Of a stretch of DNA of 64,000 nucleotides, positions 26,218-61,570 are shown in pieces. The stretch is from Acidimicrobiia bacterium (GTDB lineage Bacteria; Actinomycetota; Acidimicrobiia; Spongiisociales; ZC4RG35). The position numbers and the translations under genes were made by a program. Within the stretch, counting starts at the first letter, position 1; every line of letters begins with the position of its first letter. A model generated the notes under the pieces. It saw only the letters and a program-made list of their open reading frames with translations, was not told where the DNA came from and made no database searches. Location: NCBI GenBank assembly GCA_028284765.1, contig JANQRA010000002.1:101061-165060 (forward strand). Direction: 5' to 3'.

Positions 26218-29200
26218 CTAGCGGAAATCGCGAGAACGGATGGTTTGGACGCCGATCGGCTCGAAATCGCGGGCAACGATGTTGGTGACGCCGTCGTAGA
26301 ACTCCAGACGACCGTGGATGATGAGTGCCGGGCTCTTCCTGACCACATGCCTGTGTTTCGCCCAAACATCGGGAAGTACGACGATGTTGAGGAGACCTGT
26401 CTCGTCTTCGAGATTCAAGAAATAGACACCTTTCGCCGTGCCCGGTCGTTGACGATGGGTTATCACCCCCGCCACTTTGATCCGCGACTTGTTCCGTCCG
26501 ACCTCCAAGGCCTCGGCCGCGGTGAGACAGCCATCCAACTGATCCCTGACGAATCTCATCGGGTGGGAAGACGAAACCGATGTGGCCCAAAGGTCAGCCC
26601 GGTGCTCCTCTTCAGGAGACATACCCGGCAACTCGGGTGCTTCCACCCCTGGCGAAAGAGCCAGACGCTCAGGATCGATCTCAGCCAGGGCACCAGCAGC
26701 CCACATTCCCTCACGTCTGCCGAGACCCAGGGACTCCAGAGCACCCGCTCCAGCCAAACCCTCGAGTGAATCGACATCGAGTCCGGTACGTGCAGCCAGA
26801 TCTTCAGGAGATCTGAAATCACCGCCGAGAATCCGTGCTGCTTCGATCCGCGTCACCTCTTTCTCACCGAGATTGCGCACATATCGAAGTCCCATTCGAA
26901 CTCCGACTGCAGGTCTTATCGGATCGTCTACATGGCCCCGGCCTCTTCTCCAGGATTGACCTAGATAGGAGACGATGTCCGCGGGGTCAGCCTGTATCGG
27001 CTCAATGGTGCAGTCGTGCCATGAGAGATTCACGTCGGGGCCGAGGACCACAACTCCGTGTCGCTGCGCATCCTGCGTCAAAGAGTTGGGACTGTAGAAA
27101 CCCATTGGTTGGGCGTTGAGGAGGCCAGCAAGGAACTCCGCTGGATAGTGAAATCGCAGCCACGCTGACATGTAGACGATGTAAGCGAAGCTCACCGAAT
27201 GGCTCTCGGGAAAGCCGAAGCTTGCAAAACCCTGAAGTTTCTCCCATATCTCCTCGGCAGCCGCACCGACAATGCCGTTGTTCCTCATGCCCTCGAAGAC
27301 CTCATCTTTCAAACGCCCCATGGCCTCGTCTGAACGCTTGTGAGTCATCGCCTGCCGAAGGCGATCGGCTTGTGAACCGTTGAACCCGGCACAGATCCGA
27401 GCCAACTCCATGAGTTGTTCTTGAAAGATGGGGACACCGAGCGTCTTCTTGAGAACCACCTCGGTTGACGGGTGTGGATAGCGGACAGGTTCCTCGCCGT
27501 TGCGACGCCGCAGGTACGGATGAACCGAGCGACCTTGAATAGGCCCGGGACGAATGAGAGCTACCTCGACTGCCAGGTCATAGAAGGTCTTCGGCTTCAT
27601 CTTGGGAAGCGTGGCCATCTGAGCGCGTGATTCGATTTGGAACAGCCCAACGGTGTCGGCCCTGGTCATCGACTCATACAGAGCCGGCTCCTGAGGGATA
27701 CGGGCGAGGTCTATCTCGACACCATGGGCATCTTCGATCAAGTCAGTTGCCAGATGGAGCGCGTTGAGCATTCCGAGACCAAGTAGATCGAACTTCACGA
27801 TCCCAACGGCTGCAGAGTCGTCTTTGTCCCACTGAATAACCGTGCGACCTTCCATCCGCCCCCATTCGACTGGCACCACTTGCCACAGCGGACGATCGGC
27901 AATGACCATCCCACCCGAGTGGATTCCCAGATGTCGTGGATAGCCGTCGAGACGCCAGCAGATGTCGTAGATCATCTCGGCTGTCATTCCCTCGGGTAGT
28001 GACGTGTCCATGTCGCGCAGTTGTGCTGGATCGCGAGTGTCCACGTACTTGGAAAGACCGTCGACCTGAGCCTGAGTGAATCCAAAAGTCTTGGCGACAT
28101 CTCGCAAGACCGATCGCGCTCGATAGGTGACGACGTTGGCCACCATTGCCGCGCGCTCCCGGCCATAACGTCGATAGCAATACTGGATTACCTCTTCGCG
28201 ACGATCTGCCTCGAAGTCGACGTCAATGTCGGGTGGCTTGCCTCTCTCCTCGGACAGAAAACGCTCAAAAGGCAAATGAAGACGGATTGGGTCGACACGG
28301 GTGAGCCCGATGCAACGACAGACAGCCGAATCTGCACCCGACCCTCGTATCTGACAGTAGATGTCCTGTTCCCGCGCAAAATCGACGAGGTCCTTCACCA
28401 CCAAGAAGTAGCCGGCAAAACCGAGACGCTCGATGATGTCCAGCTCATGTTCGAGGCGACGCCTGGCGGCGGGTTCTATCCCATCTTCTGACCCCGGATA
28501 GACATCACGTGCCCCCTCCCAGGTGAGGTGTCTCAGATACTCCATCTCATCCCGGAAATGGCCTGGCATTGGGAAGTCGGGAAGCTGTGGTGCCACCAGG
28601 CCGAGGTCAAAGGCCAGCCTGCTTCCGATATCGGCAGCTCGGGTAACCACACCCGGATACCGGGCGAAGCGCACTGCCATCTCCGCAGGGTGTTTCAGAT
28701 ATCGCTCATCAGTTGCTGGCCGAAAACCGTCAGCCTCCGCAAGGGTTCGACGTCCGCCGATGGCGGCCAAAGCTTCCGACAGGTAGGCATCGCGACGATC
28801 GTGATAGTGGACCTGGTTGGTAGCCACAGTCGACACCCCGAGTTTCTGAGATACCTCCCACATCAGGTCGTTTCGCCCGTCGTCCTCTGGCATACCGTGA
28901 TGCCACAACTCCATGTGCAATCTCGTGCCAAAGATCTCACGCAATCGAGAGGTCTCACGCATCACCGCCGACAGGTCTCCCCGGACCGCTGCCTTGGGAA
29001 CAGCTCCGGCATGACACCCGGTCAAGACATGGACGTCTTTATTGGTTGCGGCTACCGCCAGGTCGTCCCACGAATAGATCGGGAGATCCTTCTCACCTCT
29101 CATCTGGGCTTTGGTGACGAGGTGAGAGAGTGTCCGATAGCCGCTGGGTGAACCAGCGAGAAGAACTAGATGGTCGGTCTCAGGGAGATCAGTTGGCTTC

Positions 29201-29580
29201 ACCCCGTGAGAGCGGACCGAACGCCCTCGACGCAGTCTCCCCTGGCCACCCTTGACACGTGCGTACCTCTGACGGTCCCACTCTTCAGCATCGGAGATGG
29301 GATCCCTTGACCCGGCCGGTGAGACCTCGAGTCCAATCTCTACCCCGTAGATCACGGGCAAACCCGTTGCCTTGGCAGCCTGCCATAGACGCGAAGTCCC
29401 ATAGAAGCCGTGGTGGTCGGTGACGGCCAGAGCCTCGTATCCCAACTCGATAGCGCGAACTACTAGATCCTCAGGATGTGATGCCCCGTCCAGGAACGAG
29501 AAGTTGGTGTGGCAATGAAGCTCGGCATAACGGTGACTCAGAGACACTGTCGGCACTATATCGAACATATGTTCGATCAC
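26218..29580 (-). CDS. dnaE2: Error-prone DNA polymerase DnaE2 (PHP + Pol III alpha core)
   Basis: 1120 aa, with the YAELHCHTNFSFLDGAS PHP N-terminus. An alternative ATG at 29566-29568 lies inside the LexA box. Confidence 0.9.
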   Translation of the reverse strand: MIEHMFDIVPTVSLSHRYAELHCHTNFSFLDGASHPEDLVVRAIELGYEALAVTDHHGFYGTSRLWQAAKATGLPVIYGVEIGLEVSPAGSRDPISDAEEWDRQRYARVKGGQGRLRRGRSVRSHGVKPTDLPETDHLVLLAGSPSGYRTLSHLVTKAQMRGEKDLPIYSWDDLAVAATNKDVHVLTGCHAGAVPKAAVRGDLSAVMRETSRLREIFGTRLHMELWHHGMPEDDGRNDLMWEVSQKLGVSTVATNQVHYHDRRDAYLSEALAAIGGRRTLAEADGFRPATDERYLKHPAEMAVRFARYPGVVTRAADIGSRLAFDLGLVAPQLPDFPMPGHFRDEMEYLRHLTWEGARDVYPGSEDGIEPAARRRLEHELDIIERLGFAGYFLVVKDLVDFAREQDIYCQIRGSGADSAVCRCIGLTRVDPIRLHLPFERFLSEERGKPPDIDVDFEADRREEVIQYCYRRYGRERAAMVANVVTYRARSVLRDVAKTFGFTQAQVDGLSKYVDTRDPAQLRDMDTSLPEGMTAEMIYDICWRLDGYPRHLGIHSGGMVIADRPLWQVVPVEWGRMEGRTVIQWDKDDSAAVGIVKFDLLGLGMLNALHLATDLIEDAHGVEIDLARIPQEPALYESMTRADTVGLFQIESRAQMATLPKMKPKTFYDLAVEVALIRPGPIQGRSVHPYLRRRNGEEPVRYPHPSTEVVLKKTLGVPIFQEQLMELARICAGFNGSQADRLRQAMTHKRSDEAMGRLKDEVFEGMRNNGIVGAAAEEIWEKLQGFASFGFPESHSVSFAYIVYMSAWLRFHYPAEFLAGLLNAQPMGFYSPNSLTQDAQRHGVVVLGPDVNLSWHDCTIEPIQADPADIVSYLGQSWRRGRGHVDDPIRPAVGVRMGLRYVRNLGEKEVTRIEAARILGGDFRSPEDLAARTGLDVDSLEGLAGAGALESLGLGRREGMWAAGALAEIDPERLALSPGVEAPELPGMSPEEEHRADLWATSVSSSHPMRFVRDQLDGCLTAAEALEVGRNKSRIKVAGVITHRQRPGTAKGVYFLNLEDETGLLNIVVLPDVWAKHRHVVRKSPALIIHGRLEFYDGVTNIVARDFEPIGVQTIRSRDFR
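29561..29576. promoter_or_regulatory. LexA (SOS/Cheo-type) box TCGAACATATGTTCGA overlapping the dnaE2 start
   Basis: A perfect GAAC-N4-GTTC palindrome. The 22-mer CGAACATATGTTCGATCACAAG is identical to the one upstream of imuA' at 61033-61054. Confidence 0.8.
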
Positions 29581-29595
29581 AAGAGGGCGCCGAAC

Positions 29596-30186
29596 TCAAC
29601 CGTTGGCCAAGACCCTCACTCTGCTCATCACTGATTCATACGTCGGGATAATGCGGATGTGAGGCTCGATTTCGTGCCGGCCCTGAAGCTGCAACTCGAC
29701 CTCCGACCAGTCGGCAGTCGCTAGCACCGCCAAGCACAATCGCACGGCCTCGCCATAAGTGACATCACTTCCATCCGTTGCCTGCGCAATTCGATCGACA
29801 ACGAGCGACTCTCTAGAGATGGCGGTGAGCTCATCGGAGGGCCCCAACCGAATCTGCATGGTCGTACCGTCAACCCTGGTGCCTGGAAACTCAACCAGCC
29901 AGACTTCACCGTCAGGCATCGTGTACTTGAAGTGGTCGCCTTGGACTTGAGCGAACCCGACGGCCTTCATTGACTCTCTGTCTTCTGCGTCCAGGTAGGC
30001 GCAGAGATCTACGTCAGTCGGTCGATATTGCTGCGTATGAAGATTCACCGCCGACCCCCCGACAAGAACGGCTCGATCTGTGATGGCATAGTCGGCAGCT
30101 TTGGCCAGCCAAACACTGCGCTCCGTCTCGTTCGAGGCTCGTTCAGCCTGCTTGATGGCATGGCGCGCTCGGTTCAGATCCGTCAT
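29596..30186 (-). CDS. Nucleotidyltransferase-fold protein (minimal NTase-like GS...DxD motif), 196 aa
   Basis: LVGGSAVNLHTQQYRPTDVDL fits hG[GS]-x(9-13)-DhD. 4-bp overlap with the upstream XRE gene. Its stop lies 15 bp from the dnaE2 start. Confidence 0.45.
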   Translation of the reverse strand: MTDLNRARHAIKQAERASNETERSVWLAKAADYAITDRAVLVGGSAVNLHTQQYRPTDVDLCAYLDAEDRESMKAVGFAQVQGDHFKYTMPDGEVWLVEFPGTRVDGTTMQIRLGPSDELTAISRESLVVDRIAQATDGSDVTYGEAVRLCLAVLATADWSEVELQLQGRHEIEPHIRIIPTYESVMSRVRVLANG

Positions 30187-30569
30187 AGGCGCGTGGCGAG
30201 CGCCTCGATCTCAGCGGTTGTGTCGATGCCGAGCTCAGACTTCCGGTTGAGCCTTTCTAGAGGATCGGACGGTTCCAAACCGGAACTAGCCAGGATCTGC
30301 GAAGCCTCAGAAGCCTGATCCATCAAGTTCCAAAGGCCGATGGACGCAGGAGCTCTCCTTTCCAGATCACTGAAAGATGCTCCATAACAAGTGAGGAGCC
30401 GCGCAACCGTGGACATCCTGGGGTCGACCTTTCCGTTCTCAACGTTCGATATCTGCGCTCGGCTGATGCCAGTCAGCTGGTACACATCACTGATGGTCAA
30501 GCGCTGTCTTTTCCTCAGATTGCGCAGCACGACACCGTTGAAGTAACTCACATGAGTTATCTTATCCAC
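30183..30569 (-). CDS. XRE-family (Cro/C1-type HTH) transcriptional regulator with a C-terminal extension
   Basis: LRNLRKRQRLTISDVYQLTGISRAQISNVENGK. GTG start. Confidence 0.7.
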   Translation of the reverse strand: MDKITHVSYFNGVVLRNLRKRQRLTISDVYQLTGISRAQISNVENGKVDPRMSTVARLLTCYGASFSDLERRAPASIGLWNLMDQASEASQILASSGLEPSDPLERLNRKSELGIDTTAEIEALATRL

Positions 30570-30582
30570 TAACGTTTGTTAG
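30569..30582. promoter_or_regulatory. Inverted repeat CTAAC-N4-GTTAG at the XRE gene start (candidate autoregulatory operator)
   Basis: The repeat reads ctaacgtttgttag. It abuts or overlaps the GTG start of the XRE gene. Confidence 0.2.
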
Positions 30583-30633
30583 TCAAGAGAATAACGCATA
30601 CTGCGACATGCCCTTCCAAGAGACCAGTAGGCT

Positions 30634-31500
30634 GTGCCCGTGCGAGACGTCCATGTCCCAATCGAAGGTGGCGACCTGAACGTCTGGCATCGCCCAGGTA
30701 CCGACACCGCAGCAGTGTTGATACCCGGTCTGACCGGAAACAGCCGATGGTGGTCGCGGGTGATCGAGCACATCCCCGAGAGCACCGAAATCATGGCAAT
30801 CGACGTGCGCGGAAGAGCCGGTAGTGTCGACGCTCCCCCGCCTTACGACATGAAGACTCTGGCTTCAGATGTGGCAAAGGTCCTCGACCACTTCAACAGG
30901 GACAAGGCAACAATCGCTGGATATTCGATGGGTGCCTGGGTCGCGTCACAGTTCGGACTCATGTTCGCCAACCGAGCTACTCGCGTGGTGCTAGTGGACG
31001 GGGGCCTCGAGATACCGGCACCCGCCGACCTGGAGGAAGATGAGATTGCCGAAGCAGTCGTCGGCCCGTCGCTTGCGCGTCTCGGCCGCAGCTTCCGCAC
31101 GCGTTCTGAGTATGCGGAGTATTGGAAACAGCACCCTGCTCTCGCCAACTACTGGGACGAATCTATGGAGCCGCTGCTTGGCTACGAGCTTTCAGACACC
31201 TCAGGTGGGCTTGCGGTACGAGTGAATCCGGCTGCCGTTGCTGTTAGCGGGCGAGATATCACCATCGATCGAGAACTCGACGCGGCGGCACTCAAGACCA
31301 CCGTGCCGCTCCACATCGTCGTCGTCGAGCGGGGAACTGCCGACCAGGCAGGCGGGATGATCCCTCGAGCCTCCGCCGAGGCAGTCGCCTCGGCCAATCC
31401 GCTAATCACCTTTGAATATCTGGAGCATGTCAACCACTACACGCTGATGTTGGGTGCCGGCAGCGAAAGCGTGGCGGCAGCTATCTCAAATACGGGCTAG
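30634..31500 (+). CDS. Alpha/beta hydrolase fold protein
   Basis: ...AVLIPGLTGNS...GYSMGAWVA (GxSxG)... Confidence 0.7.
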   Translation: MPVRDVHVPIEGGDLNVWHRPGTDTAAVLIPGLTGNSRWWSRVIEHIPESTEIMAIDVRGRAGSVDAPPPYDMKTLASDVAKVLDHFNRDKATIAGYSMGAWVASQFGLMFANRATRVVLVDGGLEIPAPADLEEDEIAEAVVGPSLARLGRSFRTRSEYAEYWKQHPALANYWDESMEPLLGYELSDTSGGLAVRVNPAAVAVSGRDITIDRELDAAALKTTVPLHIVVVERGTADQAGGMIPRASAEAVASANPLITFEYLEHVNHYTLMLGAGSESVAAAISNTG

Positions 31501-58929: not shown

Positions 58930-60408
58930 TCAGTCGTAGACACCAGCCAAGAAGGCTTTGCCTTGAGCCACCACACATAGAAACGCTCCGGCTGAAGTCA
59001 CGATCTGAAAGCGATCTGCGTCCTTCTCACCTGACCACCATCGACCACTCAGCCTCCACGGGCCACTCCACGTGAGAACCGGCTCCCATCTCGTCCCGAG
59101 ACGAATCCGCGACGGAAGCCCTTCATCCCATTCGATTTCGATAGGCCGTAGCTTCGAGTGGACCAGAGCGGGGGCAGGAGAGGGTGTCGCACCTGGCCAG
59201 GGAGCTTCTTCGTCACGTTCCGGTGAAACAGGCTCTTCACCCCATCGCGACCACGACACTTTCTCAGCAGGCATACGCCCACCCTGGGGAGCAGACTGGA
59301 GGACTGCGTCGGGACCAAGAAGTGCCTGGGCACGCACCAGAGCACGCTCGGTCTCAACAGCAGAGGACTCGTCGCTGAGCAAACCCATCTGACGGCCTTC
59401 GCCAGATAGATCATGTGGAGAGACTCTGAGTGCGGTAACTCCCCCCACCACTCCCGCTGTTTCAACCCAGGCACTCAACTGCCATCGAACCCGGTCGTAG
59501 AGAGCACGCTCGGTCAGAGGTTCCGCGGAGCGCCAAACTCGAACTCTCGGTTTTCCTGTCAGCGGAGTGGCCGCGATCTCAACGGCATGAGGAGCGACTC
59601 CGCTCGACCGCAGACGGGCCAGCAAACGCTCGACAATGTTCCGTCCCGCGAACAGCACGGCATCCATCGCCTCCAGAGGATCTTCGAACTCCATCGAAAC
59701 GGACAACTCTTGTGGGATATCTCTGGGGTCAAGCGCCCGATCCTCACCGCTGGCGAGGCGATGGGCGAGGATCCCTTGATTGCCAAACCTCGAAGCCAGC
59801 GTCTCTCGGGGGAGATTCGTGACTTCTCCAAGAGTCGATATCCCCAGCCATCGGAAAGTGTCGATCATCTCTGTGCCACCCATCGACTCACGCAGCGTCT
59901 CGAGATCGAGACGGGACAGAAAGCCAAGAGTGTCGTCAACGATGTTGGGGTGCCCTGGTTTGGCGACGGCTGCTGCCCAACGGGCAGCAAACGGCCCATC
60001 TGCGATGCCGACAAACTGAGGGGGCTCGGAATCAAGCTTCGTCAGCACACCATCGATGGTCGTCGCCAGCTTCTCCTCACCCCCGTAGTACCTGACTGCG
60101 CCGGCGACCGGCACGAAGAGCAACCCGGGCGAAACCACCTCCACCCTGGGCACCAGGTCTTCGACCGTAAGAACCACCTTCTCGAATCTCCGCGTCTCCT
60201 CTCCAAGGTCACGTATCAAGACCCTGGCGAAAGGCGCAAGGACTTCTGCTTCACGTCGCGGCATCCCCAACCGAACACCGGCTTCGAGCACATCGTCAGT
60301 CGCACCGGTGACACGCTCGTCGACTACGAGGACAGAGTCAGCTGACGAGACGTCCGGCCTGCCCAGTGACCACATCGGGTACCAGACGCAAAGGGCCCTT
60401 GCCTTCAT
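58930..60408 (-). CDS. imuB: ImuB (Y-family polymerase-like, catalytically inactive mutasome subunit)
   Basis: RALCVWYPMWSL... is the ImuB-type N-terminus. About 500 aa, immediately downstream of imuA'. The start is uncertain; the ORF-track start at 60444 and the later in-frame starts all overlap imuA'. Confidence 0.75.
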   Translation of the reverse strand: MKARALCVWYPMWSLGRPDVSSADSVLVVDERVTGATDDVLEAGVRLGMPRREAEVLAPFARVLIRDLGEETRRFEKVVLTVEDLVPRVEVVSPGLLFVPVAGAVRYYGGEEKLATTIDGVLTKLDSEPPQFVGIADGPFAARWAAAVAKPGHPNIVDDTLGFLSRLDLETLRESMGGTEMIDTFRWLGISTLGEVTNLPRETLASRFGNQGILAHRLASGEDRALDPRDIPQELSVSMEFEDPLEAMDAVLFAGRNIVERLLARLRSSGVAPHAVEIAATPLTGKPRVRVWRSAEPLTERALYDRVRWQLSAWVETAGVVGGVTALRVSPHDLSGEGRQMGLLSDESSAVETERALVRAQALLGPDAVLQSAPQGGRMPAEKVSWSRWGEEPVSPERDEEAPWPGATPSPAPALVHSKLRPIEIEWDEGLPSRIRLGTRWEPVLTWSGPWRLSGRWWSGEKDADRFQIVTSAGAFLCVVAQGKAFLAGVYD

Positions 60409-61021
60409 CTTCGACCTCAAAGCGCCGAGTAGCTCCCGACGCACCTTTTCCAGACGCTTCGACGACCAGGCGGCGCCTGGTCAACTTGCCATGACCTCGA
60501 TCAGCTCCCTCCCAGGTGACCCCCAACACTCTGAGCCGGACAAAGGCAACACCAGCTGGCAAACGACCTCCCATTGGTCTCATGGCGACTGCAACTCGTC
60601 GCGCACGGGCTATCGCCCCCAGCCTTCGCAACTCTCTTTCCTTGATGCCGGCGGGCACCTCTATGTACATCGCCTGCACACCTTCGAGAAGAGCTGACGC
60701 CACTTTGGGCCAGAGATGAGGTGAGCCACATCGGACCACGACCATGCGCTCCGAAACGACCCCCGTCTCCCATGCAGCCTCGGGTGAGATCAACCCTCTG
60801 CTGTCAACCACGACAACCGTGTGCGATCGAGAGAATGGTGCGAGTTGACCCAAACCCATCCGGGTCAGACCCGAGCCGGGATCACCCACCAGTTCAGTTA
60901 CCTGCCCCGATCGGAGCTGGAGCAGATCTCGCTGATCCCCCCACTCCACACCAGGTGAAGCGAGATCGATTTGACCGGTCGTTAGACCTTCGATGCCCAA
61001 AGTGACTCCAATTTCGGGCAA
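60338..61021 (-). CDS. imuA: ImuA' (RecA-fold SulA/ImuA-like mutasome subunit)
   Basis: 227 aa with ...VTELVGDPGSGLTRMGLGQL.. (a degenerate P-loop). It is preceded by a LexA box and followed by imuB. Confidence 0.65.
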   Translation of the reverse strand: MPEIGVTLGIEGLTTGQIDLASPGVEWGDQRDLLQLRSGQVTELVGDPGSGLTRMGLGQLAPFSRSHTVVVVDSRGLISPEAAWETGVVSERMVVVRCGSPHLWPKVASALLEGVQAMYIEVPAGIKERELRRLGAIARARRVAVAMRPMGGRLPAGVAFVRLRVLGVTWEGADRGHGKLTRRRLVVEASGKGASGATRRFEVEDEGKGPLRLVPDVVTGQAGRLVS

Positions 61022-61030
61022 TCCATCATA

Positions 61031-61046
61031 CCGAACATATGTTCGA
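61031..61046. promoter_or_regulatory. LexA (SOS/Cheo-type) box CCGAACATATGTTCGA 10 bp upstream of the imuA' start
   Basis: GAAC-N4-GTTC. The 22-mer is identical to the one at dnaE2. Confidence 0.8.
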
Positions 61047-61117: not shown

Positions 61118-61570
61118 TTGACCGACGAATACGGCGTCCCTGAACTGCCCGAGGACGAAAAGGCACTACCCGAGATCCAGGATGAGCACGACGATCAATC
61201 GGTGCTCGAAGGAGCCGGAGACTTCACCAGCGGAGAAGGCTTGGTCGCCTTTGCCGGCATGATCCTCATCGCGGTCTGGATCATCTTCGACCTCTTGATC
61301 AACAACTACGGCATGGACAACACCATTGCCGTCATTGCCTCACTGGCTGTGATACTCCCCCGGCTGGACCGTGAGAAACTAGAAAAGATCCAGCGTCTGC
61401 CCGTCCTCATGAAGATCGTCGGATGGGCTCTCGCCATATTCGGATTGATCGAGTTCGCCACTGATGTGCGTGGCGGTCAACTCGATGAGTTCGGAATTGT
61501 CATTGCGGCCCTCATCGCATACGCCGCCTACGTCATGGCATTCATAGGTGCCCGCCAGATCGAGATTTAA
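61118..61570 (+). CDS. Hypothetical membrane protein (acidic N-terminus, 3-4 TM)
   Basis: TTG start. Divergent from imuA'. Confidence 0.4.
   Translation: MTDEYGVPELPEDEKALPEIQDEHDDQSVLEGAGDFTSGEGLVAFAGMILIAVWIIFDLLINNYGMDNTIAVIASLAVILPRLDREKLEKIQRLPVLMKIVGWALAIFGLIEFATDVRGGQLDEFGIVIAALIAYAAYVMAFIGARQIEI

Follow-up and report, generated by a model that had tools for sequence, protein, structure and literature searches.

Two small overlapping genes lie directly upstream of the error-prone DNA polymerase gene dnaE2 in the stretch of Acidimicrobiia DNA analysed here (64 kb, hereafter the window), one encoding an XRE-family helix-turn-helix (HTH) protein and the other a 196-aa nucleotidyltransferase (NTase). 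The sequence-only reading of this DNA had placed the pair in the position that imuA-imuB would occupy in a canonical mutasome cassette, and had also likened it to HTH-antitoxin/NTase-toxin modules. The locus therefore raises the question of whether the pair belongs with the damage-response gene beside it or forms a unit of its own. We lean towards the latter, reading the pair as a self-contained, autoregulated, two-gene toxin–antitoxin (TA)-type module that stands beside dnaE2 here by chance. The features on which this argument turns are collected in Table 1.

Table 1 Features of the XRE-NTase pair, its control region and the mutasome genes in the window
Feature	Coordinates	Strand	Remarks
dnaE2 (error-prone DNA polymerase)	26218..29580	(-)	1120-codon ORF; neighbour outside the module
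dnaE2 promoter, TTGTGA-N16-TATAGT	29555..29582	(-)	Promoter scan; outside the module
Pol-beta-superfamily NTase (putative toxin)	29596..30186	(-)	196 aa; MenT1-like fold
ATGA start/stop overlap of XRE and NTase	30183..30186	(-)	Predicted translational coupling
XRE-family HTH gene (putative antitoxin/repressor)	30183..30551	(-)	122 aa
Operator O2, GTTAGTGGATAAGATAAC	30556..30573	(-)	Holds -10 TAAGAT (30564..30559)
Operator O1, GTTATTCTCTTGACTAAC	30578..30595	(-)	GTTAG-N8-CTAAC type; holds -35 TTGACT (30586..30581)
ImuB-like ORF, divergent Y-family-like	58930..60444		504 aa; follows imuA'; Pfam IMS 9.7e-6
imuA' ORF	60338..61021	(-)	227 aa; NCBIfam NF058630, E 2.7e-13, 50 bits, below cut-off 65

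The XRE open reading frame matches Pfam HTH_31 (E 7.6e-13), which identifies its product as an XRE/Cro-C1 HTH protein. At its longest, the frame spans 30183..30569 on the minus strand and reaches a GTG at 30569. The real start is almost certainly the GTG at 30551, because relatives begin with M-S-Y-F-N there, 6-7 nt past a conserved -10 element. The same five residues open the XRE protein in 22 related loci, the protein is 120-122 aa long across the 22 loci with an intact gene, and the public gene call of 122 aa agrees with GTG 30551. In the structural model, an N-terminal five-helix Cro/C1 HTH domain (residues 1-63) is joined by a linker to a C-terminal three-helix extension (residues 73-119), bearing out the earlier description of a Cro/C1-type regulator with an extra C-terminal domain. 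This extension is conserved and carries the motifs GLGPSDP..RL..K and ER.ALATR. TA antitoxin models of NCBIfam match the protein weakly (Y4mF/HipB-type, 1.6e-8; PezA, 0.009). Structure comparison matched the HTH domain to HipB structures and found no match for the C-terminal extension among solved antitoxin domains.

The second gene ends with a TGA at 29598-29596. Its product carries G43-G44-S45, 12 residues and D58-V-D60, so the GGS-x11-DVD motif of the sequence-only reading is present, although its spacing is 12 and most relatives have GGA in place of GGS; the relevant signature is hG[GS]-x13-Dh[DE]h. The Pol-beta-like superfamily is recognised by hG[GS]-x9-13-Dh[DE]h on a beta-alpha-beta unit, and the window protein has L41-V-G43-G44, 13 residues and D58-V-D60-L. 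In the AlphaFold2 model (pLDDT 94.7, pTM 0.87), the motif is laid out as a strand (residues 40-42), a helix (43-51) and a second strand (58-62), and the beta-alpha-beta NTase core is accompanied by an N-terminal helical hairpin and a four-helix C-terminal lobe. The model resembles solved NTases in overall fold, as membership of the superfamily demands. Across an alignment of 29 family members, about 43-45 columns are invariant, many of them aromatic, and the invariant aromatic or histidine positions include W26, Y54, H85, F86, F100 and W160. V42 and G44 are likewise invariant, and G43, D58 and D60 are conserved to 90% or more, D60 being replaced by Glu in two sequences. E99, at least 90% conserved (Asp in one sequence) and located on a predicted strand (95-102), is a candidate third carboxylate. 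R132 and either E146 or D138, on helices 125-138 and 141-153, are candidate counterparts of MenT1 K137 and D152.

Sequence searches link this protein to known families only indirectly. Neither Pfam nor NCBIfam gave anything above threshold for the 196-aa protein; the Pfam AbiEii model (PF08843) did not match it at E≤1, and a match to DUF6932 (E 0.047) was disregarded as below threshold. The AbiEii model of PADLOC matches weakly (E 0.0029, 15 bits). Searches of PDB chains with the single sequence and with a profile returned noise only. A word-indexed search recovered 181 homologues at 50-75% identity, none with a Pfam domain; wherever a source is named, it is a MAG of Acidimicrobiia or Actinomycetota. 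With a profile, an exhaustive search through 1.84 billion cluster representatives yielded only 234 clusters at E≤1e-3. More distantly, profile A1 finds three proteins (P0239, P0209 and P0191) at E 1e-7 to 1e-10, which in turn exceed the gathering cut-off for DUF6036, NTP_transf_5 and AbiEii; distant members thereby tie the family, through an indirect link, to Pfam DUF6036, DUF2204, NTP_transf_5 and AbiEii. No description of the family or of DUF6036 was found in the literature.

Structural ranking places MenT toxins above resistance enzymes, with ANT(2'') and LnuA as close neighbours and AbiEi also among the matches. Since motif, structure and transitive homology agree, the assignment of the 196-aa protein to a Pol-beta-like NTase fold, already proposed from its motif, is supported by sequence and model. 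The evidence does not extend to membership of the DUF1814/MenT family proper, because PF08843 does not match and the phosphoacceptor position is taken by an invariant proline.

Comparison with characterised systems helps to place both proteins. MenT1 has been shown by experiment to be a tRNA NTase toxin: it adds nucleotides to the acceptor ends of tRNAs, and its antitoxin MenA1, a helical peptide of 68 aa that lacks a DNA-binding domain, blocks it (PMC10435456). In MenAT1 of Mycobacterium tuberculosis (MenA1 Rv0078B, MenT1 Rv0078A), the MenT1 chains of 189-195 aa are similar in size to the window NTase, but identity between the two is only 13% and sequence searches detected no match, and the 68-aa MenA1 contrasts with the 122-aa XRE repressor of the window. 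In MenT toxins, the phosphoacceptor is a conserved Ser or Thr at position -2 relative to the first catalytic Asp (T39 in MenT1, S78 in MenT3; PMC11375011). T39 precedes D41 of MenT1 in this way, whereas the window NTase has Pro56 at that position and Thr57 at -1, directly before D58, both invariant in the family; this replacement, like the low identity to MenT1, speaks against the TA reading.

The toxins of AbiE, MenAT3 and MenAT4 are ~290 aa long and carry the DUF1814-specific motif IV, in contrast to the 196-aa window protein, and where the window has an XRE HTH, their antitoxins, of COG5340, combine a winged HTH with a large C-terminal domain. The earlier remark that the window protein is much shorter than AbiEii/MenT thus holds against MenT3/4 and AbiEii, but not against MenT1. 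HipBA, HigBA, PezAT and MqsRA share with the window pair an XRE HTH protein (in the window a putative antitoxin), coupled genes and palindromic operators over their own -35 and -10, but as toxins they have a kinase, an RNase or a UNAG kinase, none of them related to an NTase.

To ask how the pair is inherited, we drew on 83 related loci from a one-genome-per-species scan (22 loci among 185,579 species representatives), a metagenome scan (43) and exact-protein look-ups (further loci). At 90% identity they form 31 other lineages (32 with the window's own), of which 23 have at least 1 kb of downstream sequence; flanks extended up to 5-10 kb. In tblastn with the window proteins, the XRE gene lies directly upstream of the NTase gene in every related locus with upstream sequence. 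The 4-bp overlap noted earlier is an ATGA in the window, and an overlap of exactly 4 nt (NTGA) recurs in 19 of the 20 related loci examined. Pairwise identities of the NTase correlate with those of both XRE-N and XRE-C (r ~0.8). The unit of conservation is the XRE-NTase pair.

Two copies of the pair occur within single MAGs (L003 with L020; L009 with L022). The NTase gene is interrupted by an in-frame nonsense codon in L017 and frameshifted in L020, with XRE intact in both, and L021 carries a degenerate NTase copy; since these are MAGs, assembly error is possible in each case. The anatomy is that of a type II TA system: both genes are small, run in the same direction and are coupled, and one encodes a DNA-binding domain. 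The inheritance as a unit, with patchy distribution and variable genomic context, fits such a system as well.

The region upstream of XRE provides a further line of evidence. The ~45 nt 5' of the XRE start are far better conserved than the proteins (~50% identical) and follow the consensus CGTTAGTGTATTGACTAAC-N4-GTTAGTGAATACACTAAC-N3-4-ATG/GTG. In the window, O1 and O2 are tandem 18-bp imperfect palindromes, 22 bp apart centre to centre. This double operator is kept in 42 of the 47 distinct upstream regions of all fetched loci (at most 3 substitutions over 16 fixed positions), and no further instance of its pattern exists in the window (0.00 expected by chance). A promoter scan independently calls TTGACT-16-TAAGAT at the operators, and across loci the second operator holds a -10 of the form TAnnnT. 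The -10 ends 6-7 nt before the XRE start in all loci, and 7 nt before GTG 30551 in the window, for which reason a leaderless XRE-NTase mRNA is predicted. The CTAAC-N4-GTTAG repeat earlier proposed as an autoregulatory operator does exist at the XRE promoter (CTAAC-AAAC-GTTAG, 30582..30569), but it is really the junction of O1 and O2. Palindromes over the operon's own -35 and -10, as in type II TA operons, are evident from sequence conservation, which supports their assignment as autoregulatory operators.

These observations suggest a mechanism for the proposed TA module. A sigma-A-type promoter (TTGACT-N16-TAAGAT) would produce a leaderless bicistronic mRNA starting at the XRE start codon. The XRE protein would bind through its HTH to the two tandem 18-bp GTTAG-N8-CTAAC operators and, because these cover the -35 and -10, would repress its own operon. 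The NTase would be translated by coupling through the ATGA overlap and kept inactive by the three conserved helices at the C terminus of XRE. Upon antitoxin depletion, the MenT1-like NTase would extend RNAs at their 3' ends with added nucleotides, the acceptor ends of tRNAs being the likeliest target, and stall translation. Here we infer four points, partly by analogy with MenT1: the toxicity, the tRNA or RNA 3'-end substrate, the neutralisation by the C-terminal helices and the operator binding. The likeness to HTH-antitoxin/NTase-toxin modules is otherwise upheld by anatomy, overlap, operators and fold together. The multiple copies, the NTase disruptions, the shifting contexts and the occasional TA or defence neighbours point the same way, towards a TA-like population behaviour.

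The most serious alternative, although one we consider rather unlikely, is an operon of a repressor and a benign enzyme, in which the NTase nucleotidylates a protein or a small molecule, such as an aminoglycoside- or lincosamide-like cationic compound, and XRE is a dedicated autoregulating repressor whose C-terminal helices serve dimerisation or signal sensing. The NTase family is acidic (pI 4.3-5.0, median net charge -14), unlike a typical RNA-binding toxin, and aminoglycoside-modifying enzymes are acidic as well. This objection to the TA reading is down-weighted because the whole window proteome is acidic (median pI 5.0), and an acidic pI is thus the norm here. The invariant, often aromatic positions could form the walls of a ligand pocket, the phosphoacceptor position of MenT toxins is not retained, and ANT(2'') and LnuA are close structural neighbours, all of which would suit such an enzyme; MenT toxins, however, outrank the resistance enzymes structurally, and ANT(2'')-Ia and LnuA have no sequence-level match to the window NTase. 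We know of no case in which the gene of either is strictly coupled to an XRE gene that overlaps it.

Conservation and distribution can be argued both ways. With a mean identity of ~55%, conservation within the family is unusually high; the family occurs in a single class, Acidimicrobiia, and the pair was found neither on plasmids or phages (tblastn) nor in IMG/VR (pattern scan). One abundant lineage keeps it in a stable housekeeping context, with dxr, rseP, ispG and an aldo-keto reductase gene on one side and CoA-transferase and rmuC on the other. High conservation, a narrow taxonomic range and absence from plasmid, phage and IMG/VR collections favour a benign enzyme and count against the TA reading, as does a neighbourhood made up mostly of housekeeping rather than mobile or defence genes. 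Against the benign enzyme stand the 4-nt overlap, the fixed 122-aa two-domain XRE and the co-varying identities, which are typical of TA pairs, together with the loci in which the NTase is disrupted and XRE intact (L017, L020) and the genomes with several copies.

An AbiE-type abortive-infection system, in which phage infection would free the NTase and shut the cell down, appears improbable. The weak PADLOC AbiEii match and the AbiEi and MenT structural matches are consistent with it, and so are the surroundings of the pair in two loci: a type III R-M system, GmrSD and an integrase lie downstream in L023, and HTH-Fic, an NB-ARC/TPR STAND protein and an Mrr-helicase in L024. These two loci, on two contigs of one sample, encode an identical protein in two downstream contexts. 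A CcdA-PIN lies directly downstream of the pair in L001. However, no more than one or two lineages have defence genes beside the pair. PADLOC, run over 93 neighbours, detected no general defence enrichment, its matches coming from a few proteins, and metabolic or housekeeping genes make up the majority of neighbours. The XRE protein, moreover, is not an AbiEi-type antitoxin of COG5340.

Phage, plasmid and viral contigs yielded no pair, which also counts against the AbiE-type system; as the plasmid, phage and IMG/VR searches were all empty, there is no sign that the pair is carried by known mobile elements. When flanking ORFs were clustered all against all, no widely shared gene emerged besides the pair, and a search for flanking direct or inverted repeats marking an insertion found only short, chance-level matches. 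GC over the pair is slightly low (0.55-0.57, against about 0.60).

We then return to the neighbour that raised the question. The dnaE2 frame matches NF004225 (1262 bits against a cut-off of 939) and has the Pfam domains PHP, DNA_pol3_alpha, finger, HHH_6 and OB. The NTase stop lies 15 nt from the first GTG (29580) of this frame, and 29300-30800 holds no terminator-like site, so the short distance stands as first described, and the strong terminator between the pair and dnaE2 that would have told against the earlier reading was not found. The LexA box TCGAACATATGTTCGA (29576..29561), in contrast, does not lie within the 15-bp gap of the junction, as had been claimed; it lies within the dnaE2 ORF at its longest, at the 5' end, and forms exactly the 16-nt spacer of the dnaE2 promoter, whose -35 starts 13 nt past the NTase stop. 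The true dnaE2 start is likely the leaderless GTG 29547, which falls 7 nt past the -10; the NCBIfam alignment starts at ORF residue 16, and no Shine-Dalgarno-like sequence precedes the candidate dnaE2 starts. Because the spacer of its own promoter is a LexA box and GTG 29547 follows closely behind the -10, dnaE2 is independently LexA-gated and probably leaderless. Read-through from the autorepressed XRE promoter, conceivable given the missing terminator, would, we infer, have to pass a LexA-occupied site.

A genuine LexA-boxed imuA'-imuB operon (58930-61046) is located ~31 kb from the pair in the same window, contrary to the suggestion that the pair takes the imuA-imuB position of a canonical cassette. 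GAAC-N4-GTTC occurs only twice in the window, with an identical core, GAACATATGTTC, at 29563-29574 (dnaE2) and at 61033-61044 (imuA'). NF058630, the model matched by the imuA' product, is named 'DnaE2-dependent mutagenesis accessory factor ImuA''. The 504-aa ORF scores far below the cut-off of Pol IV models, and we read it as ImuB-like from its sequence. In Actinobacteria such as M. tuberculosis, imuA'-imuB (Rv3395c-Rv3394c) is unlinked from dnaE2 (Rv3370c), and the window shows the same split layout. The pair resembles an imuA-imuB-dnaE2 cassette in its dnaE2 adjacency and nearby LexA box only: in Pfam and NCBIfam searches neither protein shows similarity to ImuA or ImuB, and no LexA box is present in the XRE promoter of the window or of any related locus.

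Comparative data bear most directly on a functional tie to dnaE2. In tblastn with the window proteins, dnaE2 was found near the pair in none of the 83 other loci (flanks up to 5-10 kb); the closest relative (P0003, 74% identity, 22 contigs) has an adenylate cyclase gene downstream. Relatives therefore carry the pair at unrelated loci rather than only next to dnaE2, and since the linkage is absent in all other loci, the adjacency in the window is incidental.

In one lineage (L011 and four identical metagenome contigs, L056-58 and L062), the pair divergently adjoins a dinB-like gene with the same LexA box, which lies at dinB, ~110 bp from the XRE start. A recurrent trend was considered on account of this second SOS adjacency and set aside, since it remained a single lineage after metagenome loci were added. 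With the window left out to avoid ascertainment, SOS-adjacent lineages number 1 of 31 (p ~0.06, a rough estimate compatible with chance). That the module is recurrently captured beside translesion polymerase genes under LexA control (dnaE2 in the window and dinB in the lineage of L011) and modulates damage tolerance is a distant prospect; it could do so by LexA-independent read-through into dnaE2 or by coordinating NTase-driven translational stasis with mutagenic repair. Least probable of all is a damage-linked role proper, either as a mutasome accessory replacing imuA-imuB or by SOS-coupled read-through into dnaE2, for, notwithstanding the 15-nt spacing, the missing terminator and the dinB neighbour, the comparative data have already largely refuted it, and the separate imuA'-imuB, the LexA-gated and probably leaderless dnaE2 with no Shine-Dalgarno-like sequence for read-through translation, the XRE promoter free of a LexA box, the want of ImuA or ImuB similarity and the rarity of SOS adjacency all tell against it.

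As the dnaE2 adjacency is incidental, the pair has little import for mutagenesis biology, yet the locus supplies a useful negative: this genome has an ordinary split actinobacterial mutasome, with a LexA-boxed dnaE2 and a LexA-boxed imuA'-imuB. If the toxicity predicted for the TA module is true, the NTase would represent an unannotated, Pfam-less branch of MenT1-like NTase toxins, and its partner a new class of antitoxin, in which an XRE repressor neutralises through a tail of three helices. The system would bring a clearly defined double operator and a leaderless promoter to light in the poorly studied, mostly uncultured Acidimicrobiia, and the double operator would offer a ready-made test case for conditional cooperativity.

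The mutasome of the window is split. A canonical actinobacterial imuA'-imuB operon lies ~31 kb from dnaE2, the error-prone DNA polymerase gene. Its ImuA' is a 227-aa protein with a sub-threshold match (E 2.7e-13) to NF058630, the NCBIfam family for the DnaE2-dependent mutagenesis accessory factor ImuA', and is followed downstream by a divergent Y-family-like protein of 504 aa. The LexA box 5' of the operon, CCGAACATATGTTCGATC, has a core identical to that of the dnaE2 box. The intergenic region that carries it is shared with a divergent ORF, which encodes a very acidic product (pI 4.1) without any family match and is possibly another SOS-regulated gene.

At dnaE2 itself, transcription appears to start from a promoter whose 16-nt spacer coincides exactly with the LexA box. 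The start codon is probably the GTG at 29547, giving a leaderless mRNA, and the annotated or longest-ORF start at 29580 is probably 11 codons too long. For both window promoters that were analysed closely, the indications are of leaderless mRNAs. The window as a whole has a GC content of 59.8% and a markedly acidic proteome, with a median pI of ~5.0 (n = 42 ORFs, each of at least 150 aa).

Coordinates of features in the window and in related loci (L-numbers) carrying the XRE-NTase pair
Feature	Sequence	Position	Strand	Remarks
dnaE2 promoter/start region	window	29545-29582		LexA box is whole promoter spacer
imuA'-imuB operon	window	58930-61046	-	family match and LexA box
LexA box of imuA'-imuB	window	61031-61046		
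150-aa ORF	window	61118-61570	+	divergent from imuA'
XRE-NTase pair and dinB-like gene	L011	6251-7566		divergent neighbours; also L056, L057, L058, L062
NTase with in-frame stop	L017	8184		
NTase with frameshift	L020	8001-8562		
Fragmented NTase and truncated XRE	L021	4860-6271		
Cargo	L023	8803-16427		GmrSD, type III R-M system, integrase
Cargo	L024	1808-9618		HTH-Fic, NB-ARC/TPR STAND protein, HATPase_c_3 protein, Mrr-helicase

In one lineage (five loci), the XRE-NTase pair, a putative toxin-antitoxin module, is divergently adjoined by the gene of a catalytically intact dinB-like Y-family polymerase. A LexA box, TCGAACATATGTTCGT, overlaps the start codon of this gene and lies ~110 bp from the XRE start. 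After dnaE2 in the window, this is the second case of the pair beside an SOS translesion polymerase gene, which may be coincidence or may be meaningful.

The NTase is disrupted in three loci, which could reflect either toxin decay or MAG assembly errors; in L017 and L020 the XRE gene is intact. In P0191 and P0239 (~290-375 aa), two of the distant proteins matched by the NTase profile, a DUF6036-like NTase domain is followed at the C-terminus by a helical domain that resembles RepB_primase_C. Three much larger proteins, P0140 (2166 aa), P0148 (2529 aa) and P0219 (1524 aa), contain 11-30 discrete short segments that match the profile (its positions ~57-102), and look like either repeat proteins from a beta-2 to beta-5-like fragment or a low-complexity artefact.

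Two contigs from one sample, L023 and L024, carry an identical XRE-NTase pair, whereas the cargo downstream of it is wholly unlike. This comparison suggests that a strain-variable defence hotspot adjoins the pair in these loci.
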